Shown here in pieces: positions 13,748-38,291 of a DNA stretch of 64,000 bases (the first letter of the stretch is position 1; each line of letters begins with the position of its first letter). The translations under genes and the position numbers were made by a program. The DNA is from an uncultured bacterium (GTDB lineage: Bacteria; Oederibacteriota; JAAXVQ01), in the NCBI GenBank assembly GCA_964604705.1, contig CAZSAP010000005.1, positions 85,218 to 149,217 of the forward strand, written 5' to 3'. The notes under the pieces are model-generated. The model saw only the letters and a list, made by a program, of their open reading frames with translations, was not told where the DNA came from and searched no databases.

Positions 13748-14580
13748 TGTTGCAAGCTCGTTTGGTCAAGCAAAGCGGTTTAGCTTTTTGGACGCTTCCA
13801 AGCTGGGAACGTTTAGGCTATCGTGTTGCATTTTTTCAAAGGATGGGAGGTGTCAGTCAGCCTCCGTTTCGTGGATTGAACCTTGGGTTAACCACGGAAG
13901 ATGACAAGGGGCATGTGTGCATGAATCGTACGCGTGCTTTGGCTGCTGCGGAGTTTGGACCCCTGACACCTGTACTGGGGCAACAAGTCCATGGCAACCG
14001 CATACAAGTTGTCGAGGCACCAGCGAGCGGACGCGGATGGCTTGATTCCACAACCTCATTTCCAGAAACCGATGCACTCATCACAGCAACCAAGGGCTTG
14101 CCCATTGGGGTAGCGACTGCCGACTGTCTACCCGTCCTACTAATCACAGAAGGTCCTGTGCGGATTGCCGCGGCCATTCATGCCGGTTGGAGAGGTATTG
14201 CTTTGGCGATTCTTTCCCAAGCTGTTGAACAGATATGTCAACAATGGAGCATCTTGCCAGAACATTTTCAGGCTGCGGTTGGACCGGGCATAGGACCGGA
14301 CCGATTTTGCATTCAAGGGGAAACGTTGACCATGCTGCAAAGTCAGTATCCTGAGGCCGTGGTGCCGGAACAGCGGTTTCTTCCCATCGCCGGATTTGAC
14401 CTTTGGAAGGCGGCTGCAATCCAATTGACGCGGGCCGGGGTCCATCCATCAAAGGTTTCGGTTATTCGTGAATGTACCGCCGGCAATCCTGAACAATATT
14501 TTTCGTATAGGCGGGACGGGAAACAGACAGGTCGTATGCTAAATATGATTCAAATAAAGGAATATCAGGAGACCGCATGA
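13747..14580 (+). CDS. pgeF: PgeF/YfiH family protein (purine nucleoside phosphorylase LACC1-like)
   Basis: LNLGL, QQVHG, TADCLPVLL, IHAGWRG, FFSYRR. Confidence 0.92.
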   Translation: MLQARLVKQSGLAFWTLPSWERLGYRVAFFQRMGGVSQPPFRGLNLGLTTEDDKGHVCMNRTRALAAAEFGPLTPVLGQQVHGNRIQVVEAPASGRGWLDSTTSFPETDALITATKGLPIGVATADCLPVLLITEGPVRIAAAIHAGWRGIALAILSQAVEQICQQWSILPEHFQAAVGPGIGPDRFCIQGETLTMLQSQYPEAVVPEQRFLPIAGFDLWKAAAIQLTRAGVHPSKVSVIRECTAGNPEQYFSYRRDGKQTGRMLNMIQIKEYQETA

Positions 14581-14897
14581 CGGATCTAAAAGCGCAGGCT
14601 ATTGGCTTAAAATCATTTATTGAGTATGCTTCGGAATCCGTAGTGAGCAAGACATTAATTGATAAAAAAGTTGGGACCTTGACCTTGTTTGCTTTCGATG
14701 CGGGCCAAGGCTTAAGTGAACATACGGCACCGTATGATGCCGTAGTGCATATCCTCGATGGTGAGGCAGAATTGACCATTGATGGGAAGAAAGTCGTGGC
14801 CAAGGAAGGGGAATTGGTGATCATGCCCGCCCAAATCCCACATTCTTTGCACGCTGATCAGAAATTTAAAATGATGTTGATAATGATACGAGCTTAG
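14577..14897 (+). CDS. Cupin domain protein
   Basis: LFAFDAGQGLSEHTAPYDAVVHILDGEA, IMPAQIPHSL. Confidence 0.9.
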   Translation: MTDLKAQAIGLKSFIEYASESVVSKTLIDKKVGTLTLFAFDAGQGLSEHTAPYDAVVHILDGEAELTIDGKKVVAKEGELVIMPAQIPHSLHADQKFKMMLIMIRA

Positions 14898-19800: not shown

Positions 19801-22473
19801 GTGTTTTGGGAACGTATGTTCCTACTTCGCCCAACCCAAACGGGGTGTTTTTGGAGGAAGCGATTGCGTGGATTAAGCGTATTCTGGGTGGGAATTCTCA
19901 TCCTTTGCCTTGTCCCATCGATTCATGCTTCGCGTGAGCCGGTTTTACCGGCTGGACACGCTGGATCAAAATCGGCTGCGCTCGGAGGTGCCGGAACGGC
20001 TCTTCCGGGTTCAGCCGAATCGCTTTTTTCCAATCCGGCAGCGCTTTCCCAAATTCGATGGTTAGAAGTATCCTCTTCTTTCGGCAACCAAGATCTCGGC
20101 GATGGGCGTGAAGCCGTATTGGCCGGAGTCTTTCCTTTGGCTGGTCGTTTGGTGGCCGGTGCAAGTTTTATGCACCGTGCTTTTCCTCGTGGTCCCCAAA
20201 ACGAAACCGATGTATTTAGCGCTTCGTTGGCTTTTCCTTTAACGCATAACGGAAAATTTCTCACAGGTGTTACGGCCAAATATTTTATTCGTCAAGAAAC
20301 TATATCCACTCGCGGGTGGGAAACCTCGCGAGGGGCAGGTGTTGATCTGGGGTTGTTGTATGAAGCCTATGCTGATTCCGATGACCGAGCCTTTCAAATG
20401 GCCGTAGCTATTCTTGATCCTCAAACCAATCTGAAAAATGAACATTCTGAAATTCAACTTCCGGTGGTCGTACGGGCCGGGATGTATGGGAGTCTAGGCC
20501 AAGGAACACGCTTGGTTCTGGGGTACGATGTTCAATCGCCGGCCGTAAGTACATATGAGCGGTTTCAAGTTCTGCGTGCAGGTGTGGAACAAACTATGGT
20601 AGTTTCGTTCTTGGATGCATGCTGGATACGTGCCGGCTACGAACGGCGTTTGGATCAAACCGGGATTGCCACCGCGGGCGTAGGCGCGGAATATGCAGAT
20701 TGGCGAGTGGATTACGCTTTGCAGATTCCTGCCGCATTCTCGGATGTTTGGCACCAACTAACCCTTTCTTGGGGTTGGCAGCGTTCCGTGAAATCCAAAG
20801 AAGTGTATGTTCCTGAACCTGTGGCCACGCCTGAGACCAAGTCACAGCGTGCTCCCAAACAGGAGGATCGACTTTTTTCAGCCCTCAGTATTGCCGCAGA
20901 GGTGGAAGAAGGGAACCGCAAAAGTGCGTTTGAGGAAGGCACTCCTACTCCGACGGCCACACCCACGTCCAAGATAAGGAAACCCATGGAGTCAAGGTCG
21001 GAGGACGAGGGGGTTTCGTATCACCTCAATGTTCCGCAAAGCCCTGCCGATGAAGAAAAGACTACGATTGCTCCTGAACTTGAGGTTCCGGGGACCTTTT
21101 CCAATTATATGGCCGGGATTCGTCCTTCACGGGATAATTTTAAAATTATCAACCAGGATTTGCGATTGCATGTGGTGGTCAATCCCTTTTCCCCCAACCG
21201 TGACGGTCGGCAGGATCGCACCATCTTTGTGGGACGTGTTGAATCCGAACGCTTGCGTGTGGCGCGCTGGGTCATCAACGTGCTGCAGGGCGATCAAGTC
21301 TTTCGCTCGTTCCGGGGCGGAAGTCGCATGCCGCATAATTTGGAATGGGATGGTTCGGATGCACGCGGAAAAATTCTCCCCGATGGAACCTACGACATTC
21401 TGTTACGTGTGTTCGATGAGACAGGTTTGGAAATATCGGCCGCCACGCAGCCCGTGGTTTTGCGTACCAAAATTGACCCGATTAAAATGACGGTGCCGGA
21501 ACTGGTGACGCTTACCGGGGATCGTGAGCAAGACAAGCCCGTGCTGATTACCGTACCCAAGCTGGCCCGCAGCAGCGATTGGCGCTTGGTGATTACCGAC
21601 CCGCGCAACCGAAAGGTGTTCGACAAAAGTGCCGGGGGGGAAGTTCCAGAGAAGTTTGCTTGGGCACCCCGCATGGGCAGCCGTGTCCTCTCGTCGGGCA
21701 AGTATCGTTTACAACTTACGTATCGCGATGAGGTTGGACTAAAAGGAACGTCGGATGCAAGCTTGAAGATTGGTTATGCGGAATTTAGTGTGGAACTAAA
21801 AGCTGCACCTTTGTTGTTTAAACCGGGGGCCAATCCGGAAGAAGGGGTAACCTTCACTCCGGAGATCCAGGGTGAGATCAAGATTTCTCGCTGGACCCTT
21901 ACCATGTACGAAGTGAATCAAGAGCGGGCATTACGCATTTTGGAAGGCGAGGGCGTACCACCGGCAACAATTGTCTGGGATGGCAAAGATCAGGATGGGA
22001 AAGATCTTCCTGGCGGAAAGCTAATCCGCGCGGTCTTGACGGTCCAATCGGCCGTAGGTACCGAAGAAACCGCCGAGGCTCCGCAACTGCAGTCCGATCT
22101 CGGGGCGTATACAGGGAAGCAAGCACTCACGATCAACCTGGTTCGCGTTACGTTTGCTTCGGAGGCTGCGGATATTTCCGAGATCGCCATGAAATCACTC
22201 TTGGATGCAGCTAAAGTGATCAATCAATATAAAACCGATTATTCCATCCGTGTATTGGGGTATTGCGATCAAAAAGAAGCCAAGGGAAGAGAAACAGAGC
22301 TCTCACGCCTCCGAGCTCAGAAGGTCTTGGATTATTTGGTTCGCGAGGGCAAGATTGCAGCTGAAAAAATCCAATCGGTTGGGTATGGAAATGAAAAACC
22401 TTTGTCTACAGATCCCTCGGATACTGAGCAAATGAAGAATCGCCGGGTCGAGGTCGTTTTATTTGCAAAATAG
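19801..22473 (+). CDS. PorV/PorQ-like barrel + FlgD-Ig repeats + OmpA domain protein
   Basis: Signal peptide; GSKSAALGGAGTA...LFSNPAAL; NPFSPNRDGRQD, WDGSDARGKILPDGTY, WDGKDQDG; OmpA end (GYCD...LSRLRAQKV...VGYGNEKP...NRRVEV). Start uncertain. Confidence 0.8.
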   Translation: MFWERMFLLRPTQTGCFWRKRLRGLSVFWVGILILCLVPSIHASREPVLPAGHAGSKSAALGGAGTALPGSAESLFSNPAALSQIRWLEVSSSFGNQDLGDGREAVLAGVFPLAGRLVAGASFMHRAFPRGPQNETDVFSASLAFPLTHNGKFLTGVTAKYFIRQETISTRGWETSRGAGVDLGLLYEAYADSDDRAFQMAVAILDPQTNLKNEHSEIQLPVVVRAGMYGSLGQGTRLVLGYDVQSPAVSTYERFQVLRAGVEQTMVVSFLDACWIRAGYERRLDQTGIATAGVGAEYADWRVDYALQIPAAFSDVWHQLTLSWGWQRSVKSKEVYVPEPVATPETKSQRAPKQEDRLFSALSIAAEVEEGNRKSAFEEGTPTPTATPTSKIRKPMESRSEDEGVSYHLNVPQSPADEEKTTIAPELEVPGTFSNYMAGIRPSRDNFKIINQDLRLHVVVNPFSPNRDGRQDRTIFVGRVESERLRVARWVINVLQGDQVFRSFRGGSRMPHNLEWDGSDARGKILPDGTYDILLRVFDETGLEISAATQPVVLRTKIDPIKMTVPELVTLTGDREQDKPVLITVPKLARSSDWRLVITDPRNRKVFDKSAGGEVPEKFAWAPRMGSRVLSSGKYRLQLTYRDEVGLKGTSDASLKIGYAEFSVELKAAPLLFKPGANPEEGVTFTPEIQGEIKISRWTLTMYEVNQERALRILEGEGVPPATIVWDGKDQDGKDLPGGKLIRAVLTVQSAVGTEETAEAPQLQSDLGAYTGKQALTINLVRVTFASEAADISEIAMKSLLDAAKVINQYKTDYSIRVLGYCDQKEAKGRETELSRLRAQKVLDYLVREGKIAAEKIQSVGYGNEKPLSTDPSDTEQMKNRRVEVVLFAK

Positions 22474-22619
22474 TTTCTTTTTTACTAACCACCTATCTCC
22501 AATTAATCCTTTTTATTTTTAGACAAATACAGTAAAACGCTTGTTTTTAAAGAATATTAATTGATTATTTGCGTTTGCATTTATCTGCGAAAAAATATAC
22601 ATAAAAATGCTTGGAAAAC

Positions 22620-22647
22620 TTTACACTGATATATTTTGTGCTATACT
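22620..22647 (+). promoter_or_regulatory. Putative sigma70 promoter with extended -10
   Basis: TTTACA-N16-TATACT, with TG one base upstream of the -10 box. Confidence 0.45.
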
Positions 22648-22721
22648 TGTTACAGAACAGTCAAGACGCCAATGCGTTTTCAACGACATCAAAGTCTTGG
22701 ACATAGGGGGTGGAGGTTATG

Positions 22722-23735
22722 ATGAACAAAATGAAGAAACTTACACTGGGATTGGTTCTGATGTTAAGCGCTCTACTGGTCATGACAGCAGGGTGCGGAA
22801 AAAATGCGGTGGGACCCACGACGCCGAGCATGTCGTTGGAGTCTGAGGAGCTGTCCGACACGGCGGCCATGCAGGAATACTCAATTGCCTGTCATAGAGG
22901 CGAGGGGGGGCTTGGTCCGCGGGCTTGGATGTATCGCTTTATGATGCGGCTTACGCCAGTGAAAATTCTCCAAACATCAGACGAGATCAGCGAAGGTTAC
23001 TTCACCGATCCTGAAGTAAAAAGAACCGTCAAACGCGTCTTGACTTCACGGCTTTTCTACCTCATTGCGTTCAATCACGGCGCAGCATACTTGATGGTGG
23101 ATACGTTTATTCGCATTATCTCCAACGCTTGGTCGCCTGAGGGCGATGAAAATCCTGGAGCATTTCCGGCCAAGGTTACGCTGTTTCCGCGGGATTGGAA
23201 CCGGCATCAACTCTTCCATGGTCAGTTGCAGGCAGGGTGGTTGAATCCCGGACCTGGACGCTATGTGATGGATCAGTACAATGCCACCAATCAACGTGTG
23301 ACCCTGAATACCTCAACCATTGACATGGACACAGACGGGGATTTTTACCAAAATCAGAATAACTTCCGCGTGTACCGTTGGTATTTTGGGACGTCCATCA
23401 ATTTGGCCCGGGCCAAGGTTTCGTTTCAATACAATCCGGAACCCGACATGCGCTTGTTGTCGTTTGATGGTCAGTCCACATTTACCGACGAAGACGGGAG
23501 CATGATTATTTTTGATGAAGTCTGGGCCTCGGTAAAAGACAAGAGTGCGCGTTGCCACATTCGTTCTTCGTCGGGTGTTTTGGATATTAATTTGACCTTT
23601 GCTGCCGATGGATCGGGCAGTGGCAGCATGGATATTCGCAACGTGTTTGGCGCCACCACCCATTACGACTATGTGCAGTATGCAAATGGTCATGGCTATT
23701 GGAAGAAAAATGGCGGGAAGAAACGCGGATTTTAA
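22722..23735 (+). CDS. Hypothetical lipoprotein
   Basis: Lipobox LLVMTAGC after basic N-terminus; GGAGG RBS; beta-rich C-terminal half. Confidence 0.8.
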   Translation: MNKMKKLTLGLVLMLSALLVMTAGCGKNAVGPTTPSMSLESEELSDTAAMQEYSIACHRGEGGLGPRAWMYRFMMRLTPVKILQTSDEISEGYFTDPEVKRTVKRVLTSRLFYLIAFNHGAAYLMVDTFIRIISNAWSPEGDENPGAFPAKVTLFPRDWNRHQLFHGQLQAGWLNPGPGRYVMDQYNATNQRVTLNTSTIDMDTDGDFYQNQNNFRVYRWYFGTSINLARAKVSFQYNPEPDMRLLSFDGQSTFTDEDGSMIIFDEVWASVKDKSARCHIRSSSGVLDINLTFAADGSGSGSMDIRNVFGATTHYDYVQYANGHGYWKKNGGKKRGF

Positions 23736-23754
23736 AGTATAATTAACCTAATTC

Positions 23755-23796
23755 AAGCCCTGGGCGAACCTGAATGTCCAGGGCTTGCTTTTTTTT
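23755..23796 (+). terminator. Rho-independent terminator
   Basis: AAGCCCTGGGC...GTCCAGGGCTT hairpin followed by GC and a T-run. Confidence 0.75.
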
Positions 23797-23806
23797 AGGC
23801 GGGGTT

Positions 23807-26299
23807 ATGCTGAGTGCTCCAATGAAAACGAAAATTCGGTACATAATGGCCAGGCTGATGGGGGTTGGTATCTGCCTTGGCGTTTGGATGCAAAGCGGGG
23901 TGGCGCACGCGGATCCCAATGCCGGGGTTAGCTACGATTCCACTGGTTCGGTTAATTGCGTGTCCGTAGACGGTACGCGCAATCGCCTTTATTTAGGAAC
24001 CGCTGACGGAACCAATACCTTTCTGGTCTACTCGTTACAATCCAATGGCAATGTCTCGTCTTTAATCAGCAGTGGATACATTGGTTCCAATATTGTCAGC
24101 TTGGCCGTAGACTCGGAGCGAAATCGACTCTACGCGGCCAATGCCAGCACCACCGAGTTGTATGTATTTACCTTGGATGCCCTCGGGAATACCACGGCGG
24201 TTGCCTCCACCAATGTGTTTTCGGGAAACGCCACTTCACTGGCGTTAAACGGGCGTTGGCAGCGTTTGTACGTGGGGACGCAAAACGCCAATGGTCTTGG
24301 GGTATGTCGGCTCAATGCCAGCGGGGATGTGACCAGCAATACAGTTGCCTGCTCAAGCGGCGCCAATGTGTATTCACTGGCCTTGGACGAAGCGCGGCAT
24401 AAGCTCTACTTGGGAGGCGCCAGCGGCAATCTACGCGTGTATACCTTGAATCCGGCCAACGGTGAGCCTGTGACCCTTACGGGCCCCTACGCCTCGGGAG
24501 CTGGAAATATCGTGAGCATGGCTTTGGACAGTGTCCTAAACCGATTGTACGTAGCTTCGGGCAATTATATCTATGCGTACACACTCAACGACAATAGCTC
24601 GGGCGATCCAGGGGAACCGTTATCGGGCCCGGCATCCTACAACGCCGGTTTTGCGGTGAATGCCTTGGCGCTCGATGCGGCTCACCGGCGTTTGTACGTA
24701 GGGGTGGCTACCTCCGGCACCAGTGATATGCGATGGATGGATTTGATGAGCAATGGGGATCTGGGTGTGGTTATCACCCCGGTCAACGGTGGCGACGACG
24801 TACGGGCCATGGCCCTGGATCTAAAGCGGCAGCGGCTTTATACCGGGGCCAATACCGGCGGGTCGTTCTATCATACCATGACCGACGCTGTCATGACGCC
24901 GCTTTGGATTAACAACGGAGAAGCCAACACCACCGATCCGAACATAACCTTGAAATGGTGTGTGCCCAATGCCCAGTTTGTGCGGGTCGAGAACTCGGGT
25001 TTGCAGGATTATTATTTCCCGGTCTCGTACACACCCAACACCACCTTCGACCAATGGCTCTCGGCCGGGAGCGCCACCTGGAGTGCCGATGGGACCACGC
25101 GACCGGTGACCTTGACGGTGAAGGCCACGCTGAGCGCAGGTTCGGGTACCAAAGATATTTTTGTGTGGTTCTGGGAAAGCTCGGGTGCCACCAACACCAA
25201 CGGAATCATTCGCAGAGAACAAGCCTCGATCAGTTTCAACGGGAGTTCACCGACCTGGACCCCCACGGCCACGGCCACGCCGACATATACCGCCACACCG
25301 ACGGCCACACCGTCGTACACATGGACGCCGACCAACACCGCCACTTCGACGATGACCCCGAGTGCGACCCCGACCTATACACCCAGCAACACAAGAACAC
25401 CCACACATACGCCTACTTGGACGCCGACTTACACTGGGACACCTACGCAGACACCTACGTCAACGTTCACTCCGAGCGCGACGCCCTCGCATACCCCGAC
25501 CGTCACCCCAACATCAACCTGGACGCCAACGTACACCGCAACCTCAACTGCGACACCCAGTGCCACACCGTCCCATACACCGACGTTTACCCGGACCCCC
25601 ACGCACACACCGACGTTCACTTTGACCTCAACCGCCACACCAAGCATGACACCGTCCTATACACCGACGTTTACTCGGACACCTACGCACACACCTACAT
25701 ATACAGCGACCTCAACGCTGACACCGAGCCATTCGCCGACGGGTACCCCTTCGAGCACCTCCTCGCCAACGTTTACGTCCACCCACACGACCAGTCCGAC
25801 ACGAACCGTCACTTCGACTCCGACGTACACATCAACTGTAACCGCCACGCCTACCGTGACCCCGACCTCAACGGTCACACCCTACTGGTCGGCCACGACC
25901 ACGCGCACCATCACGGTTACATCCACCATTTCACCGACCGGAACCATGACGCCGACCATAACCGTGACTGTCACCGAGACCCCAACACTGCCGCCAACCG
26001 CAACCCCAACCCCTGCGGCGAAGATGTTTCTCGATCGCAACCATTTCAATCCTGAACGGGAAACGCTGAGCATTCAGCTTGGCTTTGTTGAACCTACGGA
26101 GGTGAATCTGGAGATTTATTCACTCTCCGGTCGGAAAGTATGGAGCCGCACCCTAAGCGGCGTGCAACCCGGGTACCAAACCGTGGTATGGGATGGGCGC
26201 AACACCTCCGGTGACTATGTGGGTTCGGGTGCGTATTTTGTGGTGCTCCAACGCGAGGGTCAGAAACAATACCTGCGTAAGGTTCTGGTGATTAAATAA
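23807..26299 (+). CDS. Secreted surface protein: 7-blade beta-propeller + Thr/Pro stalk + C-terminal FlgD-Ig (T9SS-sorting-like) domain
   Basis: Seven SLALD...RLYVG-type repeats; about 255 aa T-P-T repeat; C-terminus [11 protein letters not shown]...[19 protein letters not shown]...RKVLVIK. Start uncertain. Confidence 0.85.
25250..26014 (+). repeat. Low-complexity Thr/Pro(Ser) tandem repeat (coding)
   Basis: ACN-CCN codon runs with recurring units such as [17 protein letters not shown]. Confidence 0.95.
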
Positions 26300-28521
26300 T
26301 GCGCCTGGGAAAATGCCTGACGTACATCCTGGTGGGGTCTCTGAGTGCACTGCCGTTGGTGAGCATGGCCAGCGAGGGCAGTACGGGCTCGGATTTTCTC
26401 AAGCTCAACCCCGGTGCGCGTGGCACCGCCTTGTCCGAAGCCTATATGGCCACGGGCAGTGACAGTGAAACCCTTTACCACAACCCTGCCGGCATGCTGG
26501 ATTTGGTCAACCCGCAAATCTATGTGGGGCACTTGGCCTGGTGGGAAGGTATCACCTACGATTCGTTCTGGGGCGTTCAACCCTTGGAAAAAGAACGTGC
26601 CTTGGGAGCCGCGGTTTCGATCTTGAACATCCCCCCGTTTAACAGCACCGAAGACCCAGACATAGCCTCGGACTCAGCCTGGAGTCTCCTGGCCAAAGTG
26701 GGTTATGCACATAAGTGGAACCGGACCTTGGCTGTGGGAGCGGTTTTAAATGTCATGGCCTCGCAACTGGCCGAGAATCGCGCCTGGGGCCTTTCCTTGG
26801 ACGCGGGTGCCAAATACTACATGTGGAACGATCGACTCGTCGTGGCCGCAGTGCTGCGCAACCTGGGCCTTATGTCCGCCTTTGAATCCCGCTCCGATGC
26901 GCTTCCGCTTATGGGCGGCCTGGGTGCCGGGTATACGCTGCTGCAGGAAGAATGGCTGCGCTCGACCGTGGATTTGGATGTGAAACTTCCCTTAGGCGAT
27001 CGACCGGTTTTCGCTTTAGGCCACGAGACCTGGCTCTGGAACTCGGTGGCAATGCGCTGGGGCGTAAACACCACCAGCGATACCGGGGATTGGGTGACGT
27101 GCGGCGCTGGGTTTCGTTGGCAACAGATACATGTGGATTATGCGCTCAAGCCTTTGGGGTTGATGGGCCCGGTCCATCAAGTTTCAGCCGGGTATGATTT
27201 TGGGCGGCAAGTGAAGTTGGACCCGCCGAAACTCAGTGTACGCTTGATCAATCGGCAAGTGGTATACCCCGATGGGGAAACCGGGAACGAAGTGGAGTTT
27301 ATTCCACTGTGTAAGATACCCGCAGGTTTGGAACGCTGGACACTCGACATCACCGATCGAAACGGCAAAACTGTGAAACACAGTCAAGGCGGAGCACCGT
27401 TGCCCCTGCGTATTGTCTGGGACGGAAAAAACGACCAAAGCCAGACCGTGGACCGCGAGGCGTATTACATTTACCGCCTGGAAGTGGTGGATAAGCGGGG
27501 ATACTCGGACGAGAGCCAAGGTGAGATCCTGCCGATCTCAATAACCCGGTTACCACAGCTCAAAGCCGGACCGCGTGACATATACGCCGGCAAGGTGACC
27601 TTTGCCCCCAAGGGCAGCGAGACCGCGGCCGAGTGGTCCATAAGCATCATGAATGCGCAAGGCCTCGTACTTAAGAAGTACCAAGGCGTGGGCCCAATCC
27701 CGAAGGATTTTGGCTGGGACGGCAAAGACGAGTTTAACCACCAAGTCTCGGTCCAAGAAGGCTTCCACTATGTCATGCAGGTCAAGGATAAGGCTGGCAA
27801 TGAGATAAAGTCCGTGGCGCCCCTGGCCCAGGTGGATGCCGGTACCAAGGCGTATGCGGAGAGCAACACACCTGTGGCCGAGCAACTGGTCTTCCGTTTC
27901 CGCCTCCAGCCGGAGATCAAGTTCAAGGGTTGGGCGCTGGACATCGTGGACGCAGACACCGGCAAAGTGGTGCGTACCTTCTCGGCCGACGGACGTCCGC
28001 CTGAGGCTGTTACTTGGGACTCGCGCGATGACCAAGGGCGTGTGGTGGCCTTGAACCAGAAGTTTAACTACGTCCTGCGCTTGCAGGATCACGTGGGGAA
28101 TGTCTGGCAACAGGCTTCTGAGCTAAGGCGCACACCTTTGAACATTGTCTCCCAAGAACCGGGTATGACGAAAATTAAGATTGATCAAATCCTTTTCGAG
28201 TTCAATCGAGCCGAACTCAAGCCCTGGGTCTATGAAAAACTGCGGAAAGTCGCGGACCTCATAAAAGGCTATCCGGCAGGCAAGGTGCATGCCGTGATCG
28301 AGGGGCATACCGATGAGATCGGCACCGAACAGTTCAATCGGGAACTCTCCACCAGCCGGGCCAACATGGTCATGCGGTATTTGGTAGAAGAGGAAGGCAT
28401 CTCGTCTGCCGTACTCGAGATCAAGGGCCTGGGCAAGACCGTTCCTCTCAGCACCAGCTCCGACCCGGAGAGCATGGCCAAAAACCGCCGGGTCGAAGTC
28501 ACGCTGTATTTGTCGAAATAA
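26299..28521 (+). CDS. PorV/PorQ family barrel + three Ig-like repeats + OmpA domain protein
   Basis: FLKLNPGARGTALSEAY...LYHNPAGM PorV-type signature; WDGKNDQ, WDGKDEF, WDSRDDQG repeats; IEGHTDEIG...LSTSRA...NRRVEV. TAATG overlap with the upstream gene. Confidence 0.88.
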   Translation: MRLGKCLTYILVGSLSALPLVSMASEGSTGSDFLKLNPGARGTALSEAYMATGSDSETLYHNPAGMLDLVNPQIYVGHLAWWEGITYDSFWGVQPLEKERALGAAVSILNIPPFNSTEDPDIASDSAWSLLAKVGYAHKWNRTLAVGAVLNVMASQLAENRAWGLSLDAGAKYYMWNDRLVVAAVLRNLGLMSAFESRSDALPLMGGLGAGYTLLQEEWLRSTVDLDVKLPLGDRPVFALGHETWLWNSVAMRWGVNTTSDTGDWVTCGAGFRWQQIHVDYALKPLGLMGPVHQVSAGYDFGRQVKLDPPKLSVRLINRQVVYPDGETGNEVEFIPLCKIPAGLERWTLDITDRNGKTVKHSQGGAPLPLRIVWDGKNDQSQTVDREAYYIYRLEVVDKRGYSDESQGEILPISITRLPQLKAGPRDIYAGKVTFAPKGSETAAEWSISIMNAQGLVLKKYQGVGPIPKDFGWDGKDEFNHQVSVQEGFHYVMQVKDKAGNEIKSVAPLAQVDAGTKAYAESNTPVAEQLVFRFRLQPEIKFKGWALDIVDADTGKVVRTFSADGRPPEAVTWDSRDDQGRVVALNQKFNYVLRLQDHVGNVWQQASELRRTPLNIVSQEPGMTKIKIDQILFEFNRAELKPWVYEKLRKVADLIKGYPAGKVHAVIEGHTDEIGTEQFNRELSTSRANMVMRYLVEEEGISSAVLEIKGLGKTVPLSTSSDPESMAKNRRVEVTLYLSK

Positions 28522-28642
28522 ATAAGAAATAAAATGCAATTAATTTGACGATTGTTGGTCATAACACGAACGACAATTTATACGACTTGAGTTGTGTCCA
28601 TAACTTAAGTGTCGATTGTCGAAAAAAGGACTAGGAGTTTAA

Positions 28643-29725
28643 ATGAAAAAGACGATATGGATTTTAGGGTTGGTAGGGGTTTTAGGTGGCTGGAGCATGT
28701 TGGCATGGGGGCAGACGTCTCGCAGTGGGCAAGCGACCGCTCAACAGGATCAGACCAGTGAGAGTGCCGTAGCTCCGCAGACCACTGAGGCAGAAGAAGC
28801 AACTACTGAAGGCGAAAAACCAGAGGCCCAGAGTACATCGCGTACGATTCAACCCCTTACGGGCAATTTGCTTTTTGCGGACGGGATCTACTTGCGCAAT
28901 GTCACGGTGTTGTACCATAAAGACGGAGTCGTCCAGTTCACCTGCGAGGGTGATGATGCCTTGTACAGTGTGAAAAGCAAAAACGTGAAAAGCATTTCTC
29001 CGGAAGTTCCGGAGGGGTATGTGCTGGTAAAACCTATGGATTTGCAGAAAATTAAGCGCATTTCAGTGATTCCCACTGAGCACGTGGTTCGCATGCTTCC
29101 GTTTATTTACGTGGGTGCGGGCTATGCTCAATACCTTATGGCGGATATAAATCGTTGGATCGACGAGTCCAATACGGTTATGCGCATGTACGGCGTGCCG
29201 ACTGAAAATAGGATATCATCGTTTGCTTTTTTGGATGGGGGAGCCGGACTTTGGTTTAACGAATACATTGCAGCAGGCGTGGATTGCGGATATCATGCGC
29301 CCAATGCTACGGGCGGAACCACGGGTATGGGTGAACAGATGTTGCTTTCAGCTGTCGAAGGCAGTGGTTTTTTAAAAGTGGCAACCAATCGTCAGGAAAA
29401 GATGTTTTTTACAGGTACTCTGAGCCTTGGCGCTCTTAGTCTATCAGACGCGTATATGGATGAATATGTCTTTGGGCGGAAGTATCGTTGGTCGCTAAAC
29501 GGCAGTACAACCTGCGTGAAGATTGGCGGAGGCGTGGAGTGGCGTTTTGGGAAACATCTGGGCTTAGGGGTGGATGTTGGCTACCGCTCAGCTAAAATCA
29601 CCGAGGTTAAGGCCGATATCTCAAATGGCCGAAAAAACGTACGGGTTACTCATGCAGACGGCTCACCTTTGGAGATCGATTACAGCGGGGTGTATGGGAA
29701 AACTGGGTTGAGGGTTTATTTTTAA
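28643..29725 (+). CDS. Outer-membrane beta-barrel protein with N-terminal repeat-family domain
   Basis: Signal peptide; alternating strands (GGGVEWRFGKHLGLGVDVGYR); terminal GLRVYF BAM-type signal. Confidence 0.8.
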   Translation: MKKTIWILGLVGVLGGWSMLAWGQTSRSGQATAQQDQTSESAVAPQTTEAEEATTEGEKPEAQSTSRTIQPLTGNLLFADGIYLRNVTVLYHKDGVVQFTCEGDDALYSVKSKNVKSISPEVPEGYVLVKPMDLQKIKRISVIPTEHVVRMLPFIYVGAGYAQYLMADINRWIDESNTVMRMYGVPTENRISSFAFLDGGAGLWFNEYIAAGVDCGYHAPNATGGTTGMGEQMLLSAVEGSGFLKVATNRQEKMFFTGTLSLGALSLSDAYMDEYVFGRKYRWSLNGSTTCVKIGGGVEWRFGKHLGLGVDVGYRSAKITEVKADISNGRKNVRVTHADGSPLEIDYSGVYGKTGLRVYF

Positions 29726-31218
29726 TGAGAAAGGTAATTCGGTGTAAAAATATGCGGCTAGTTATGCAGCTGATATTAGTTCCTCTTTTTTGGATTATTG
29801 CGGGAACGCCTGGATTATGGGCCGAGGGGCAGAAATTAGATGCTTCAAAACTAGATATTAGCGGAAATACAAAATCATCATCTGTTGATACAGCTTACAT
29901 AACAGGGTCGTCTGAACCAAGTGTGCCAATGGATGTTGATCAAAGCAGCGAATATCTTACAAAGGCTGAGTACAAACAATATTGGACAGATGCAGAGGCT
30001 AAGATGGTTTATTTAGTCCTCTCTCCAGAAGCGTATCTTCCGGAAGTGACTATTTTAAAAAATACAGATGGGATTATTCATTTTAGATATAGAAATAGTA
30101 AAACGGTTTACAAAATTAAAGTTGATGAAGTAAAGACTGTTGTCCCGTTACCACCAAGTCCGCGTTGTTTTGCAATAAAACCTGGGGAGCTAGTACGACG
30201 CAATATTGTAAATGAGGTTGAAGATGCAAACTACCCTGATTATACAAAGTTGCCTAAAAAAATAGTTTCGAAGGTTTTGCTGGCATCTGACAATGAAGTG
30301 GAAGATGAGAACTCATATAGCGGAACAACGCAAACAGGAAATGTTGAGAACTTAGGAACGGATTTCAGAGAACCCTATGCCGCGCCAGCCAAACGAACAC
30401 CACAATCATGGGAAGATGTGGAAATGAACATGGTGTGTTTGGTATTTAAAAATAGGCGTTTTTTTATAAGAGATGTTCTTGTTCTCGCAGAACATGACGG
30501 AACAATTTTCTTCCGTGTTCAACGAGAAGAACCGGTATACCGAATCAGCAAGAATAAGGTTTTTAATATAGCAAGAACAATAAATGAAAATGATTATTTC
30601 TTTGGAAAACACTCGAGGTTTTTACAAGATAAGTTTATTTTACTGGAACAAAAGGTTTATTTTGCGGAATTACCAAAAATTCGTTCGAAGTTAAAGGGTG
30701 TTACACGGAAAATAAAAGATATTTTCTCATTAGAACCAGTCGGGTTTCTTGTAGGTGCTGGTACACTGGAATTTGAACATTTTATCAATAATAACACAGC
30801 GATCGCAGTCGGATTTTGTTGTTCATATCCGGGTGGAAAGACATTTAGTGGAGTCGGTGGTGCAAATGGGCCGGAGCATCAAGAGCTGGGCGGGCAAGTC
30901 TCTGCTCGTGTCTATCCTTTGGCCGATTACTATGCACCTGCGGGTTTGTGGATAGGCCCGTGTTTTAAATACTATGTTGAAACTTTTCCGCAGTATTCTA
31001 AAAGCTTGACTTACTTTAATAGTCTTCTTGAGGTGGGTTGGGGTTTTTCTTTTGAGGGTAAGCATTCCTTTGTGGTTTCACCCTTTATTGGAGTTGGTTT
31101 TTCTGCAGCAGGTGGGCCGGTGTACGCTGGCGAAGGTGGTCCTAAAATAGCCCCCAGAGCGGTCACCAATGAAGGCTTAACAGGTCTTATTGGCTGCAAC
31201 ATAGGCATTGGTCTGTAG
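29725..31218 (+). CDS. Exported protein: two repeat domains + C-terminal (DUF3575-like) beta-barrel, paralog 1
   Basis: Signal peptide; SLEPVGFLVGAGTLEFEH, YAPAGLWIGP, terminal GCNIGIGL; TAATG overlap with upstream gene. Confidence 0.78.
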   Translation: MRKVIRCKNMRLVMQLILVPLFWIIAGTPGLWAEGQKLDASKLDISGNTKSSSVDTAYITGSSEPSVPMDVDQSSEYLTKAEYKQYWTDAEAKMVYLVLSPEAYLPEVTILKNTDGIIHFRYRNSKTVYKIKVDEVKTVVPLPPSPRCFAIKPGELVRRNIVNEVEDANYPDYTKLPKKIVSKVLLASDNEVEDENSYSGTTQTGNVENLGTDFREPYAAPAKRTPQSWEDVEMNMVCLVFKNRRFFIRDVLVLAEHDGTIFFRVQREEPVYRISKNKVFNIARTINENDYFFGKHSRFLQDKFILLEQKVYFAELPKIRSKLKGVTRKIKDIFSLEPVGFLVGAGTLEFEHFINNNTAIAVGFCCSYPGGKTFSGVGGANGPEHQELGGQVSARVYPLADYYAPAGLWIGPCFKYYVETFPQYSKSLTYFNSLLEVGWGFSFEGKHSFVVSPFIGVGFSAAGGPVYAGEGGPKIAPRAVTNEGLTGLIGCNIGIGL

Positions 31219-31233
31219 GTGGGATAATGGTGC

Positions 31234-31338
31234 TCAAATGGTCAGAAAAATGTGCGGGTCACTCACGGAGACGGCTCGCCTTTGGAAATTGATTACAGTG
31301 GTGTGTATGGGAAGACGGGGTTGAGAGTTTATTTTTAA
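31234..31338 (+). pseudogene. 3' relic of a paralog of the 28643-29725 barrel gene
   Basis: Encodes SNGQKNVRVTHGDGSPLEIDYSGVYGKTGLRVYF*, against SNGRKNVRVTHADGSPLEIDYSGVYGKTGLRVYF* at 29621-29725; in-frame TAA at 31225 and no start codon after it. Confidence 0.9.
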
Positions 31339-31396
31339 AGTGGAAATATTAAGCGTAATCCGGAAATTTATTTGGTGATTTTCTTTTGAGGTGTTT

Positions 31397-32875
31397 ATGA
31401 AACCATTCATTCATATTACAACTTTATTGATTTGTACTGTTATCTATGGGGTGGGGTTTTCCTGGGCAGAGGCGACTCCCCAAGATAATTTAATTTCGAG
31501 TTCGGGAAATTCAACGATTGCTGGATTAAGCATGGAGGTTTTATTAGTACCACCCACTGCTGAAAGTGCTCAAACGCTTGCACCCAGTTCGTTTGTGGAA
31601 TCGCCAAATAATAATGATGAGGTTGTGGATCCCGCTGTTGAAATAGAAAAGAATCAAGTGAACCTGATTTTAGTAGCAACTCCCTATGTCCCAAAAGTTA
31701 CTGTCCTAAAGAATCAAAATGGGGTTATTCATTTCAAATATGAGTATAGTGATAAAGTATATGCGATCAATGTGGCGGATGTTAAAAATATCACTAAAAC
31801 GATACCGGAAAAAGGCTATTTGGCAACAAATCTCCGGATGTTAATTAAAAATGAAATTGTGACAAGACTAAAAGATGCAGGGTATCCGAAATTTCCGAAG
31901 CCTAGATCAATTCGTCAGAGTAAACGAAATGTCCAGCTGCCTTTGTCTGCGACAAATGAACCTGGGTTCATGTCGGGAGCAGATCCCGATGAAAAGAACG
32001 AACCAATATCCGAAGGAGAGTATCTCCAGAAAGCGGTAGAGGGTTCTTCAAATACAGCAGACATAAATCCAATTAAAAATTGGTCGGACATTGAACCTAA
32101 TATGGTCAACCTTGTTGTGCCAGGGCAGTTTTATGTACCCAACGTGACTGTTTTATATAATCAAAATGGAGTGATGCATTTTAAATATGGTCATGGTGAT
32201 CAGGTATACAGCATAAAGCAGGAGGCTGTCTCCGAGGTTTCCCAATCCACCCCTGAAAATGGAATCTCGATTAATCCGCGCGTTCTTTTGAATGAAAAAA
32301 AGGTTACGCTAGTGACTGATATAGGTTATCCAATGTTTCCAAAGCTTCCCTCGATGATCAAAGGGTCTACCAATGAAATTAAAAATACATTTACAATTGA
32401 GCCGGTAGGGTTCGGGTTTGGTGCAGCAACTTTGGAATATGAACGGATAATTGGTGGCAAGGTATCATTTTCTGTGGGGTTCAAATTTAATATACCGGAG
32501 AGTTCGGTCTATTTTGATGATTCTAAGGAAAGGCACACATACTGGGGATGGCAAGGTTCCATGAGGTTTTATCCGTTCAAGGATTTTTATGCTCCGCGTG
32601 GATTATGGTTCGGGCCAACGTGGGAGTCGATTAATACACAATACAATGATTACAACAATACGATATTCACAAATACTACCATGTTAACTGAAGTTGGTTG
32701 GGGTTTTATGTTAAAGGACCATTTTGGACTCATGGTTTCACCATTTGTAGGACTCGGTTTCACGTGGGGGAGTGGTAAACCTATTATTAAGAGTTTTAAT
32801 GGTATGGAAGAACGAATAAACCCTTACACAGGGGTCACATTCGTTCTGGGGTGTCATATTGGGGTTGGATTTTAA
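31397..32875 (+). CDS. Exported two-repeat + beta-barrel protein, paralog 2
   Basis: Signal peptide; TIEPVGFGFGAATLEYER, YAPRGLWFGP, terminal GCHIGVGF. Confidence 0.8.
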   Translation: MKPFIHITTLLICTVIYGVGFSWAEATPQDNLISSSGNSTIAGLSMEVLLVPPTAESAQTLAPSSFVESPNNNDEVVDPAVEIEKNQVNLILVATPYVPKVTVLKNQNGVIHFKYEYSDKVYAINVADVKNITKTIPEKGYLATNLRMLIKNEIVTRLKDAGYPKFPKPRSIRQSKRNVQLPLSATNEPGFMSGADPDEKNEPISEGEYLQKAVEGSSNTADINPIKNWSDIEPNMVNLVVPGQFYVPNVTVLYNQNGVMHFKYGHGDQVYSIKQEAVSEVSQSTPENGISINPRVLLNEKKVTLVTDIGYPMFPKLPSMIKGSTNEIKNTFTIEPVGFGFGAATLEYERIIGGKVSFSVGFKFNIPESSVYFDDSKERHTYWGWQGSMRFYPFKDFYAPRGLWFGPTWESINTQYNDYNNTIFTNTTMLTEVGWGFMLKDHFGLMVSPFVGLGFTWGSGKPIIKSFNGMEERINPYTGVTFVLGCHIGVGF

Positions 32876-33211
32876 ATATATTTTGTAGGAATGTTGCCGG
32901 TGGGAATAAAGTGTATTTATATTTGTGTTTTCTAATTTCTTTAATAAATCTACTCCATAGCTCAGGTAACTAAAGGTTTGTTTTTGGTTTTTAAGTGAGT
33001 TCGTTTTTCGTCTCGCCTCTCTGCAATTTAGTTTGTATAAAAACCTCAAGTATTGCAATTAATTTCAAAACTTCCTGTCAAAAGATCCAACTAAAACTGG
33101 GGCATCATGAAAGTGTGGCTGGGTAGTTCGAAGTATGAGGAGGATACTTCCAAGGGGAAAAATGCCATGCCTTATGACAAAACAACCAGTTTAATAAACA
33201 GGAGGCAAACG

Positions 33212-36200
33212 ATGTCTATTGGTAGAGATGCATTGGAATTGAGCAGATATGTATATCATGATATTCCGGCAAATGGTGGGTCTGTGCCACCGCAGTATAC
33301 CCAAATTGGTTGGTTTGATCGTAGCAGTGATACTTGTTCTGGTTACACTGGCGAGGCTTGGAGCGATGGAACAAATGTGATCATCGCAAATAGGGGTACA
33401 GAGAATAATTGTAATGATCGGTTGGAAAATTTGAGAATGGCAGTGGATAAGGTGGGGCCACAAATGAGAGATGCCCTCGATTTTGTTGAGGAATTAAGAT
33501 TGCAAGGGAAACTCGAAGGCAAAAACGTTTATGTTGTTGGGCACTCTATGGGTGGATCGATTTCTCAGTATCTAGCAGCGTGCTATGAAAATTTCAAAGC
33601 GATTACGTTCAATGCTTACGGAGCTCGAGATATTCTCTTGAGTGCTGGAATCCTTCAATCATCCACAAATGCAAATATTGATAGTCGAGTCACCAATTAT
33701 GTAGTGGAGACTGATTTTACTGGGAATAAAGCTCGTCAGATAGGAACTACATATTATTTAAGTGGACCGGGAACGAGTTATGATATTGTAAATCCTGGTA
33801 CAATTCTAAATTACGTTTTTCTTGCATCACACCATTTAAGTAATTTTGAAAGGTTATTCGATTCGGATTTTCAAGATCCAAGACATAGTGGTAACTTAAG
33901 AACTCTTAGAACAGATGCAAGTATTGCTCTTGTGGCTTTGGCGGAGACGCCACTCGATCCTTTTACAACAGCAATTAATTTGGCTCTAGCGCCGTTCACG
34001 GGACAAATACCGACACTTGTCCCCCTCCCGGCAGCAATCGCGACGTTGTTGCCTGACCCAATCTCACTTACAAATCCCTCGACATGGCTTAATCTAATTA
34101 CGGATCCGATTCTGAAGCCAATTCAAGCAACCATAGAAATTATAAATAATGTGCGGAATTTTTTAGGTATGGGAGGAAATAATCAGAATAGAAATGATTA
34201 TAATTATGAAGGGGATGATTATTTTGACCTTACAACTCCAAATAATGAAACTAATATTTTTAATGGCGATGATATTTTGGACGCTAAAGGTGGAAATGAT
34301 CGAATATATAGCCGCTTTGGCAATGATAAGCTTTATGGTGGGGCTGGTAATGATTATATTTCGGATAATTTTGGAAATAACATGTTGCATGGCGGGACGG
34401 GTGATGACACGTTGGTATGTTGCGAAGGGAATGATTCTTTATATGGCGATGATGGCATGGATGTCCTAATAAGTGGTGCCGGGAATGATATTTTAGTTGG
34501 CGGGAGTGGCGATGATAAATTGTATGGGGGGTATCAAGACGATTTGCTGTCAGGTGGATTGGGTATAGATGAACTGAACGGAGACAATGGGGATGATCAG
34601 CTATGGGGTGATGAAGGTAATGATTTGATGAGTGGTGGTGATGGAAATGATCTGTTGGACGGCGGATCAGACGATGACGTTATGCATGGGAATGAAGGAA
34701 CTGATGTCTTAATTGGCAATGTGGGAAGAGATACGTTATATGGAGAGGAAGGTAACGACAAGCTATTTGGTGGTGATGAGAACGATTATCTACTTGGTGG
34801 AGAAGGGGACGACCAGTTGGAAGGAGCTTTAGGTAATGATACTTTGGTTGGTGGAAATGGATCAGATGCCATGGATGGTGGTGAAGGTGATGATGTGATA
34901 TTTGGAGAAACACAATATTTGGCACCTGGCTTTGGTGGAGGAAACGACACCATGTGGGGGGGGGCTGGACTAGATCGGATGTACGGGTACGATGGAGATG
35001 ATACATTGCACGGTGGAAATGATGCTGATCATTTGGAAGGGAATGACGGTAATGATAACTTATACGGTGATGCAGGGGACGATACCTTGGTTGGATGGAA
35101 TGGAGTCGACTCCTTGTATGGTGGTGAAGGAAATGACACGTTGTATGCAGTCAGTGAGGACCGGGTTTATGGCGGTTCGGGCGATGATACCTTGTTGGGT
35201 TATGGCAACAATAATTTGCTTGATGGTGGTGAAGGGGTTGATCGGATAACGATGATGGATTCATCAACCAATAACCAACTTTTGGGTGGCTCGGGAAATG
35301 ATTTTCTTCAAGTAAATGCTGGAACAAATTATATGGACGGGAGCGATGGGGATGATCAACTAGTAGGTGGTTTGGGAAATGATACATTGGTAGGTGGTTT
35401 GGGTATAGATGAAATTACTGGAAATGAAGGCGATGATACGATTTGGGGAAATGAAGGCGATGATGAACTGGATGGTGGAAATGGTAATAATACTTTGATC
35501 GGTGGATCAGGCCATGATTGGATGATAGCCGGTGATGGTGTAGATACGTTGTGGGGTGGTGATGGTTGTGACTTCCAGTATGGTGGTGGAGGTAACGATC
35601 GCCTCGGTGGTGGATTGGATGGAGATCAGCTCTATGGGGGTGAAGGAAATGATACGTTATGGGGAAATGAAGACGGAGATTGGCTATACGGCGGGATTGG
35701 TGAAGGTGTTTATTGCTTAAGCGGCACTGATACCCTTTACGGTGACGAAGGGGATGATTACTTATTTGGGGAAGACGGTGATGATTTTCTGTATGGAGGA
35801 GTTGGAACTGATCGCCTGATGGGCGGGGATGGGGGCGACACCTTATATGGGGAAGATGGGGATGATTTTCTTTTTGGACAAGACGGTGTGGATACACTTT
35901 TAGGAGGTGTCGGTGCAGATAAATTGTATGGTGGTGCTGGCAACGATGAACTAGCGGGTCATGAAGGTGATGATCAACTTTATGGTGAGAGTGGCAATGA
36001 TCTTTTATACGGCTATGATGATAATGATTTACTTTATGGCAGTTCAGGTAGTGATGTCTTGTACGGCGGCGCTGGAAATGACAGTATTTATGGTGGCACA
36101 GGTGAATATAATTGGGATGGTAACAATATAGAAGGTTTGTTTGATGAAGAAAGCAATGTTGCGAATAGTTTATATGGTGAGGCAGGAGACGATTTTTTAA

Positions 36201-36829: not shown

Positions 36830-36842
36830 CTTGAACTTGGAT

Positions 36843-36886
36843 CGGTTCCTCTCTCTCGTTACATGAGAGGGGAACCGGTTTTCTTA
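36843..36886 (+). terminator. Hairpin/terminator after the RTX gene
   Basis: CGGTTCCTCTCTC...GAGAGGGGAACCG followed by GTTTTCTT. Confidence 0.65.
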
Positions 36887-36906
36887 AAAAATGTAAAAGA
36901 GGGTCT

Positions 36907-37410: not shown

Positions 37411-37435
37411 CAAGGTGCTGGAAACTTTTTTGGTA

Positions 37436-37525
37436 GTCCTTGCGAGGCGTCGTAGCGACGAAGCAATCTCGATTGTATAAGGACAAAGTCAGATTGCCAC
37501 GTGCCCGTGGGTCGCTCGCAATGAC
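37436..37525. repeat. Palindromic REP/RPE-like intergenic element
   Basis: Outer arms GTCCTTGCGAG / CTCGCAATGAC and inner arms GAAGCAATCT / AGATTGCCAC. Confidence 0.7.
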
Positions 37526-37572
37526 CTCTCAGGGTAGTTCTTAAACCTGCAATCAAGTATAGCTGATCGCTG

Positions 37573-38247: not shown

Positions 38248-38291
38248 GCGTTTAATCAACTAAGTAAACAACTAAAGAAGCGGAGCTGACC

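Follow-up and report, generated by a model that had tools for sequence, protein, structure and literature searches.

A PorV-family barrel fused to Ig-like and OmpA domains and its paired sorting-domain protein in an uncultured bacterium outside Bacteroidota

The subject of this work is a group of four genes, g1 to g4, in a stretch of 64,000 nucleotides (nt) from an uncultured bacterium (contig CAZSAP010000005.1), the whole of which is called the window here. As read from the list of open reading frames (ORFs) and the sequence, these genes make up the content of positions 19801-28521. All four had been named in an initial annotation of the sequence and all are present on the + strand. The minus-strand ORFs of this segment are short and nested inside the + strand genes, and no RNA families or tRNA were found in it. 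The gene g4 encodes a barrel of the PorV/PorQ family continued by three immunoglobulin-like (Ig) domains and an OmpA-type domain. It is coupled to g3, the product of which ends in a C-terminal domain (CTD) like the type A sorting domains of type IX secretion systems (T9SS), and the pairing recurs in other lineages.

Gene content of the locus

The features of the locus are as follows; lengths and domain limits of the products are in amino acids (aa).

19801..22473, + strand: g1, 890 aa; OmpA 59.6 bits, FlgD_ig 31.5 bits, PorV_fam 47.3 bits
g1, about aa 45-330: divergent PorV-like barrel, after a signal peptide
g1, about aa 331-455: acidic/Pro-rich linker, about 125 aa
g1, about aa 456-770: three FlgD_ig-like Ig domains
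g1, aa 784-881: OmpA_C domain
22710..23735, + strand: g2, probable lipoprotein with lipobox TAGC; kept within the module
23754..23797, + strand: terminator-like hairpin and T8 between g2 and g3; overlaps the mechanical ORF start of g3
23808..26299 (ORF opens at 23774), + strand: g3, the cargo; propeller, middle domain, stalk and CTD
about 23912-24898, + strand: g3 7-bladed YVTN/YncE-like propeller with RLY[VL]G motifs, after a signal peptide
about 24899-25240, + strand: g3 beta-rich middle domain
25241-26017, + strand: g3 Thr/Pro/Ser stalk
26018..26299 (aa 749-841), + strand: g3 CTD, type-A-like, FlgD_ig fold, KVLVIK followed by the stop codon
26299..28521, + strand: g4, 740 aa; barrel, three Ig-like domains, OmpA_C
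g4, aa 1-24: signal peptide
26371-27213 (g4, aa 25-305), + strand: PorV/PorQ-family 14-strand barrel with N-terminal hatch
27214-28164 (g4, aa 306-622), + strand: three FlgD_ig-like Ig domains
28165-28518 (g4, aa 623-740), + strand: OmpA_C peptidoglycan-binding domain

The membership of g4 in the PorV/PorQ family was assessed with NCBIfam model NF033709, which has a curated cut-off of 90 bits. The full protein reached 110 bits and the barrel alone 114.6 bits, so that by its profile score g4 is a member of the family. The remainder of g4 matched FlgD_ig (47.9 bits) and OmpA (68.5 bits) in Pfam. The cut-off of OmpA_C (PF00691), 27.2 bits, was exceeded by both g4 and g1, and the fusion of the barrels to a canonical OmpA peptidoglycan-binding domain, as proposed in the initial annotation, is thus present in both proteins. 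The peptidoglycan-contact motifs are found in g4 as GHTD...LS..RA and NRRVE and in g1 as GYCD...LSRLRA and NRRVE, and the OmpA_C fold of g4 resembles the peptidoglycan-binding domains of OprF and of A. baumannii OmpA (Omp38) with a template modelling score (TM) of about 0.8. Judging from these motifs and the fold, the OmpA domain of g4 probably binds the wall.

The second barrel protein, g1, was less clear-cut. Its barrel scored 47.3 bits (E 2e-12) on NF033709, under the cut-off, and in sequence it is a divergent relative of the PorV/PorQ family, not a scored member. Of the two PorV/PorQ-type barrels first reported here, only that of g4 reaches the family cut-off. Orthologues of g1 with 38% identity were found in the related loci L002 and L004. 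No gene for a cognate CTD protein lies upstream of g1, which would be a paralogous barrel-Ig-OmpA tether lacking a cargo of its own. In alignments, the Ig repeats inside g1 and g4 belong to the same domain type as the cargo CTD but do not have its terminal motif.

The propeller of g3 contains seven RLY[VL]G motifs, evenly spaced about 47 aa apart, and matches YncE/lactonase-type propeller families. The linker that forms the stalk is 259 aa long and consists of 43% Thr, 17% Pro and 12% Ser. On TIGR04183, the model of the T9SS type A sorting domain with a cut-off of 23 bits, g3 gave 24.4 bits as full protein and 28.3 bits with the tail alone, in both cases above the cut-off, the match covering residues 759-839 of 841. 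The tail also matched FlgD_ig at 30 bits (above cut-off) and Pfam PF18962 at 15 bits (below cut-off), and it ends in ...KVLVIK. By its score, the tail of g3 belongs to the T9SS type A sorting domains, in line with the type-A-like CTD that had been ascribed to the cargo. Orthologues of g3 share 50% identity in L001 and 40% in L002. Orthology of g3 to PorZ or PorU was considered and rejected, the CTD alone giving matches. Within the linker an 84-bp unit is repeated about 2.2 times (25532-25716). A 366-aa ORF at 24955-26055 is spurious: it runs through the Thr/Pro linker in another frame and results from the repetitive ACN/CCN codons there, which cause the negative GC skew at 24-26 kb as well.

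The stop codon of g3 and the start codon of g4 overlap by TAATG, with one base common to both, and the translational coupling of the two genes can be read directly from the sequence, as had been noted before. Upstream, g3 is separated from g2 by a hairpin (23754-23787) with a 13 bp stem, 8 G-C pairs and a following T8. L001 (about 1280-1350), L002 (about 7650-7700) and L004 (about 7630-7680) have a hairpin and T-tract in the corresponding place, the stem there being of another sequence. The hairpin thus sets g3-g4 apart from g2. The hairpin could be a plain g2 terminator, or a leader hairpin regulating g3-g4. The mechanical start of g3 at 23774 is doubtful because it lies inside the conserved hairpin, and the true start is probably ATG 23808 or 23822. 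In the window (segment 23736-23797) and in L001 the hairpin is preceded by a conserved AAAGTATAAT(T/C)AACCTAATTCA stretch with a perfect -10 hexamer.

The signal peptide of g2 ends in ...LLVMTAGC|GKN. Since it ends at a Cys lipobox (TAGC), g2 is a probable lipoprotein, and the lipoprotein gene initially placed between the two barrel genes is retained as such. No family match for g2 was found in Pfam, NCBIfam or PDB; orthologues exist in L001 (46% identity) and L002 (30%).

The PorV-type barrel and its recurrent pairing with sorting-domain proteins

A full-length AlphaFold2 model of g4 represented the barrel poorly (predicted local distance difference test, pLDDT, about 55-65). For fold comparison the barrel was therefore modelled by itself from an alignment of 24 diverse sequences, which gave pLDDT 89 and a predicted TM (pTM) of 0.86, 14 strands and an N-terminal helical hatch. 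The top PDB folds for this model were PorV structures, 8gl6_F (E 3e-14, TM 0.83) and 6h3i_F (TM 0.81), followed by FadL and TodX with a TM of at most 0.71; TbuX was a further secondary match. Sequence comparison led to the same result. The single g4 barrel sequence found no match in a PDB sequence search and a profile was needed; the profile of 24 barrels matched F. johnsoniae PorV with E 3.6e-32, TodX with 1e-6 and FadL with 2e-3. The 24 diverse fusion barrels matched PorV_fam in all cases, PorQ in 23/24, PorV in 22/24 and PorP/SprF in 1/24 (E 7.6e-4). A conserved NPAG motif in the barrel hatch resembles the NPA motif of FadL, and a PPFNST loop joining strands 3 and 4 is conserved too. The barrel is thus PorV/PorQ-type rather than FadL-type, as first suggested, and the outcome that could have spoken against this, barrels modelling as FadL, was not observed (TM at most 0.71 for FadL, 0.83 for PorV).

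Several more specific assignments were tried and rejected. The g4 protein is not PorV proper (NF033710), on which it scored 27 bits against a cut-off of 250, the long loops being absent and three Ig domains and OmpA being fused to the barrel, nor PorQ (NF033711; 73 bits, cut-off 220). Neither g4 nor g1 matches PorP/SprF (TIGR03519), which was found weakly in a single one of the family barrels. In the case of PorE (NF052230) the OmpA part alone matches (g4 51 bits, g1 28 bits) and the g2 lipoprotein does not match. Membership among FadL/TodX transporters was rejected on the far weaker profile values, and BamG of the Bacteroidota barrel assembly machinery (BAM) complex on a TM of 0.52-0.56 vs 0.83 for PorV and 1/24 hidden Markov model (HMM) matches. 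The Lsa66 adhesin equivalog was reached with 84 bits vs a cut-off of 700, with the Ig and OmpA part alone aligned.

The closest homologues of g4, with 47-65% identity, come from metagenome-assembled genomes (MAGs) labelled Candidatus Firestonebacteria, candidate division FCPU426 or 'bacterium', and their NCBI names are 'PorV/PorQ family protein' or 'OmpA family protein'. As the closest homologues are from Firestonebacteria and FCPU426 MAGs, the source organism is placed outside Bacteroidota, in agreement with the initial annotation; a barrel-OmpA relative is also present in Elusimicrobiota. The four-gene order g1-g4 is kept in the Firestonebacteria/FCPU426 relatives.

When 1.84 billion representatives were searched exhaustively with HMMER, 242 matches fell below 1e-30. 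The best 150 representatives of these were combined with the close g4 homologues, with some overlap, to give 161 sequences, in which barrel, Ig and OmpA domains occur together in 67/161 and barrel and OmpA domains in 10/161. The fusion family comprises several subfamilies that are 25-45% identical, and one cluster includes the Elusimicrobiota protein (MDO8734292). By its sequence matches, the barrel-OmpA fusion is widespread in metagenomes and constitutes a large family of which no description was found in the searched literature. A word-indexed homologue search with the barrel profile returned 17 free-standing PorV-like/UPF0164 proteins; the same kind of search with the CTD profile returned short fragments only and was unfit for per-lineage CTD counts. 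Among proteins from the L008, L011 and L012 set, P0090 and P0151 have the OmpA domain mid-protein followed by TPR matches, and P0133 has it mid-protein followed by Beta_helix/NosD matches. P0164, of 470 aa, has UPF0164 and TPR matches. As far as domain matches go, the periplasmic extension of PorV-like barrels is modular.

The recurrence of cargo-barrel adjacency had been set beforehand as a test of the pairing. Terminal CTD ORFs were sought in a local HMM scan of 93 loci with a profile of seven partner tails. The window clade, L007-L012 and L014/15 each have a terminal CTD ORF directly upstream of the barrel-OmpA gene. Counted by independent lineage, the barrel gene is directly preceded by one or more CTD genes in 8 of 9 cases, whereas no such ORF occurs in the 78 generic OmpA loci, which span 458 kb (Fisher p = 1.5e-10); the adjacency thus recurs strongly. 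Across the distant loci these upstream genes, many of which overlap the barrel gene, differ in their N-terminal parts (FG-GAP, NHL or PQQ propellers, or unknown) and share the CTD at their end. The latter served as negative control and came from an OmpA-motif-driven metagenome scan with the clade alignment, which also yielded one new barrel locus (L014 = L015, the same locus twice). An overlap between the upstream gene and the beginning of the barrel gene is present in L007, L008 and L009. The bodies of these three upstream proteins are unrelated to each other, one being unknown, one containing FG-GAP propellers (1537 aa) and one an NHL propeller, and each has a FlgD_ig-type domain at its very C-terminus. 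The same upstream arrangement is found in L011 and L012, the latter with four CTD ORFs in total, two of them for PQQ-propeller proteins encoded directly upstream. L010 has two further CTD ORFs besides one of 61 aa, possibly a remnant, whose end coincides exactly with the start of the barrel gene.

The partner tails share the pattern W..G..G..SG..K and end in K[VI][LA]V[IV][KR]. TIGR04183 was passed by 5/7 of them, and the model C-terminus of PorZ was matched by 6/7 and that of PorU by 4/7. The profile of the seven tails matches the PDB CTDs of PorU (6za2) and PorZ (5m11) and 8glk_D, the chain of a substrate CTD in a translocon complex. A Lys is invariant in all seven tails and lines up with KKMIV at the end of the PorU CTD. 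It may be equivalent to Lys1110 of RemZ, which contacts PorV (PMC10994853).

Proposed arrangement, alternatives and known systems

Taken together, we consider it reasonably probable that g3 and g4 are a cognate cargo/anchor pair, the propeller being displayed at the cell surface on a wall-fixed barrel. Both proteins would be exported by Sec, and g4 would form a 14-strand PorV/PorQ-type barrel in the outer membrane, with its C-terminus back in the periplasm. The C-terminus of an even-stranded outer-membrane barrel is periplasmic, and for this reason the three Ig domains and the OmpA domain of g4 are placed there, the former as a predicted spacer of roughly 10 nm and the latter bound non-covalently to peptidoglycan. 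Because the OmpA-type domain would hold peptidoglycan, the barrel is proposed to be an immobile anchor and not a free shuttle. The type-A-like CTD of g3 would remain uncleaved on the outer face of the barrel, by analogy with PorU and PorZ on PorV and PorQ, respectively, and with the type B cargo held by PorP/SprF, and the propeller would be shown at the surface on its Thr/Pro stalk, with the base stapled to the wall. The g3-g4 pair would then be a single-polypeptide version of the barrel-plus-PorE tether of Bacteroidota, and g2 may be an accessory lipoprotein.

The barrel of g4 cannot itself be the export channel, because a 14-strand barrel is filled by its hatch and a folded propeller cannot pass. 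Either another part of the genome encodes a translocon or the cargo does not leave the periplasm, and the former is the most likely route across the outer membrane. The module is surrounded by housekeeping genes in the window.

A number of observations weigh against surface display on a PorV-like anchor. A scan of the ~45 ORFs of the window gave no SprA, PorK-N, PorU or other T9SS core family, as had already been noted for sprA and porKLMN, and none was found in the gene tables of the related loci. A PorV segment of about 65 aa (256-322, strands 9-10) has no counterpart in the g4 barrel family, and loops L1-L4 are shorter than in PorV. In solved complexes the extracellular loops of PorV reach into SprA and wrap the CTD (PMC10994853), and because these CTD-wrapping loops are missing the mode of CTD binding by g4 may differ from that of PorV. 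The periplasmic Ig domains of the barrel protein are homologous to the cargo CTD, and a periplasmic Ig-Ig contact is conceivable. Finally, the barrel-OmpA fusion of L013, the sole exception in the 9 lineages, has no CTD neighbour, and neither has g1; the adjacency sample consists of nine lineages, and the control OmpA loci were not taxon-matched.

If the cargo were to stay in the periplasm, g4 and g1 would be OmpA-like tethers between outer membrane and wall, and the CTD of g3 would sit on the g4 Ig repeats or at the periplasmic mouth of the barrel, the whole forming an envelope-staple scaffold. This is unlikely in our estimation, but the short extracellular loops, the lack of a translocon gene near the module and the homology of the CTD to the periplasmic Ig domains keep it alive. 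The cargo CTD and the internal repeats of the barrel protein are the same FlgD_ig-type domain, and the conserved neighbours include wall enzymes (Amidase_3 and GerM downstream, an M23 peptidase in the FCPU426 module), both of which suit a scaffold. However, a 259-aa Thr/Pro/Ser linker with about 43% Thr is typical of extracellular stalks and, fully extended, would far exceed the width of the periplasm. Moreover, the tails with terminal K-x-x-x-x-[KR] pass the type A model whereas the internal repeats lack that end, and the partner proteins are propeller- or adhesin-like, as T9SS cargo are. Surface display is favoured on account of the long Thr-rich linker and the adhesin-like partners.

Another explanation dispenses with SprA: the barrel-OmpA protein, possibly with BAM or g2, would bring the CTD protein to the surface as a minimal or ancestral relative of T9SS attachment. 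Recurrence of the pair in lineages without a described T9SS (Firestonebacteria, FCPU426, an Elusimicrobiota relative) and the position of the cargo genes, almost always directly beside the barrel gene and not scattered, would agree with this, as would the TIGR04183 proteins reported in Poribacteria without Por structural genes (PMC3909097). Nevertheless, a hatch-filled barrel of 14 strands offers no lumen to a folded propeller, nor to an unfolded chain, no energy source is evident, and the absence of SprA from the genomes is an assumption of this explanation; we regard it as quite improbable. Least credible is an uptake channel of FadL type for hydrophobic compounds which happens to be wall-anchored, with the adjacency of g3 being meaningless. 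The fold does belong to the FadL superfamily, the secondary structural matches are FadL, TodX and TbuX, and the hatch motif is FadL-like. Yet PorV is far ahead of FadL both in the profile comparison (3.6e-32 vs 2e-3) and in the TM (0.83 vs at most 0.71), 24/24 barrels match PorV/PorQ models, the CTD adjacency is found in 8/9 lineages vs 0/78 controls, and g3 and g4 are translationally coupled. This explanation is already disfavoured and appears very remote. A broader proposition, that CTD-protein/barrel-OmpA pairs are free-standing display modules without SprA or PorK-N, spread over several phyla outside Bacteroidota and either the ancestral core of the T9SS attachment and shuttle barrels or an independent solution, seems doubtful to us. 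The terms 'T9SS-like module' and 'different secretion mechanism' of the initial annotation likewise stay interpretations.

The display arrangement favoured above has counterparts in Bacteroidota. In the PorE-PorP-PG1035 complex a cargo-barrel unit is tethered to the wall, PorE bridging PorP to peptidoglycan, and six porP-like genes of F. johnsoniae adjoin porE-like genes (PMC9143113). Type B CTD cargo stay bound to their cognate PorP/SprF barrels, forming cognate CTD/shuttle pairs (PMC12618676). The g3-g4 pair resembles these complexes in that the cargo gene adjoins the gene of its own 14-strand FadL-superfamily barrel and, as proposed, in having an uncleaved CTD on the barrel and a tie to peptidoglycan through an OmpA_C-like domain. 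It differs in that the barrel is of the PorV/PorQ family, the CTD is type-A-like and not type B, and the OmpA domain is fused through three Ig domains whereas PorE is a separate TPR-WD40-CRD lipoprotein. The host is also not a member of Bacteroidota, and no T9SS core was seen in the window.

In PorU and PorZ the CTD is retained, and the two proteins stay attached to PorV and PorQ (PMC10202324). There, too, a barrel of the PorV/PorQ family permanently holds a surface protein by a retained type-A-like CTD, as proposed for g3-g4; PorZ is a propeller protein like g3, and the partner tails match the CTDs of both PorU and PorZ. In contrast, g3 is not an orthologue of either, g4 is under the PorQ (73 vs 220) and PorV (27 vs 250) cut-offs, and it has Ig and OmpA domains and is without the long PorV loops. 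The PorV shuttle of the SprA translocon (6h3i, 8gl6; PMC10994853) is the best match of the g4 barrel both in structure (TM 0.81-0.83) and in sequence (115 bits), and the two share the hatch motif and 14 strands. PorV, however, is free-standing and mobile, with long loops into SprA, whereas the loops of the g4 barrel are shorter by about 100 aa and the barrel is predicted to be wall-anchored. The fusion and the pairing with its own cargo, as initially described for a wall-anchored PorV, are therefore real, but the principle is not a different one, as tethered cargo-barrel complexes are already known: given PorE-PorP-PG1035, PorU-PorV and PorZ-PorQ, the g3-g4 design would be a fused variant of a known arrangement. 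Known before are the wall-tethered barrel that holds a CTD protein and the keeping of type-A-like CTDs on dedicated PorV-family barrels. New is the fusion of a PorV-family barrel through Ig spacers to an OmpA domain together with its pairing in cis to type-A-like CTD proteins, in phyla without a described T9SS.

Two further systems were compared. The Myxococcus TraA-TraB pair (PMC3325183) is an analogous design made of unrelated parts. It has overlapping bicistronic genes as well, for a C-terminally tagged surface receptor followed by a protein with an envelope domain at its N-terminus and an OmpA domain at its C-terminus, but the tag is MYXO-CTERM, the TraB model matches g4 by the OmpA part alone, and there was no sign of a PorV-like N-terminus in TraB. 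The OmpA/OprF tethers and the spirochaete FadL-like (UPF0164) barrels likewise consist of a barrel and a periplasmic domain linking the outer membrane to the wall, and some relatives of the g4 barrel carry UPF0164 matches. Unlike OmpA, with 8 strands, g4 has 14 and, in addition, an Ig spacer and a dedicated CTD-bearing partner gene.

A review restricts CTD proteins and T9SS genes to Bacteroidota (PMC10202324). The present data contrast with this, a type-A-like CTD and a true PorV-family barrel being found as a conserved coupled pair in Firestonebacteria/FCPU426-related lineages and many other metagenomic clades. The pair is a candidate answer for the orphan TIGR04183 proteins of candidate phyla (PMC3909097), and SprA-independent display, if true, would explain orphan type A sorting domains in phyla without Por structural genes. 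The barrel-OmpA fusion can be taken as 'Rosetta-stone' evidence supporting the proposed wall anchoring by complexes of the PorP-PorE type. With cargo and barrel linked in one locus, the pair may offer a simple two-gene system for studying CTD recognition by a PorV-type barrel and display without SprA, and possibly a compact scaffold for surface display.

Neighbouring genes and the downstream island

In the relatives the gene order is PNP, mtnA, a thioesterase-like gene, g1, g2, g3, g4, accA, Amidase_3 and GerM, with an M23 peptidase gene inserted between g1 and g2 in FCPU426 (L004 5376-6269). The wall-related Amidase_3 and GerM-domain genes are downstream in all relatives and are found at 46071-47414 in the window; in terms of gene content these flanks fit a cell-envelope neighbourhood. 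In L006 (1-9808), mtnA, g1, the cargo gene and a decarboxylase gene are split by the gene caller, and the cargo ORF reads through in a six-frame scan. The splits probably reflect errors of assembly or frameshifts, and not pseudogenes.

Other relatives of the pair have different surroundings. The CTD-protein/barrel-OmpA pair of L008 (446-17754) lies inside a polysaccharide cluster with OEP, GNVR/Wzz-like, glycosyltransferase, flippase and Wzy genes, and in L011 a Wzy_C protein and YfhO are encoded just downstream. These neighbourhoods hint at a link with surface glycan synthesis. The type A cargo of P. gingivalis is attached to A-type lipopolysaccharide (A-LPS). In L013 a free-standing PorV-like/UPF0164 barrel (13669-14613; 301 aa as called) and large TPR proteins are encoded a few genes downstream of the barrel-OmpA gene, and SurA is encoded upstream on the opposite strand.

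The window differs from its relatives behind g4. In L002 and L004-L006 accA follows g4 within about 120-180 nt, whereas in the window the two genes are separated by about 16.5 kb (28522-45078) absent from all relatives. This segment contains three unknown ORFs in low-GC DNA (about 0.40), an unknown 483-aa ORF, a 1240-aa RTX-repeat protein with an N-terminal alpha/beta-hydrolase domain, an HlyC-type acyltransferase, a C39-ABC exporter, HlyD and a TolC-like OEP. From its gene content the segment resembles an RTX/type I secretion island that was inserted here, although it showed no integrase. The ORFs at 28643-32875 were considered as part of the module and rejected, as they are absent from all relatives and belong to the inserted island. 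The first of them (28643-29725) has a weak OMP_b-brl match (E 1.5e-3, below cut-off) and is possibly a small outer-membrane barrel.

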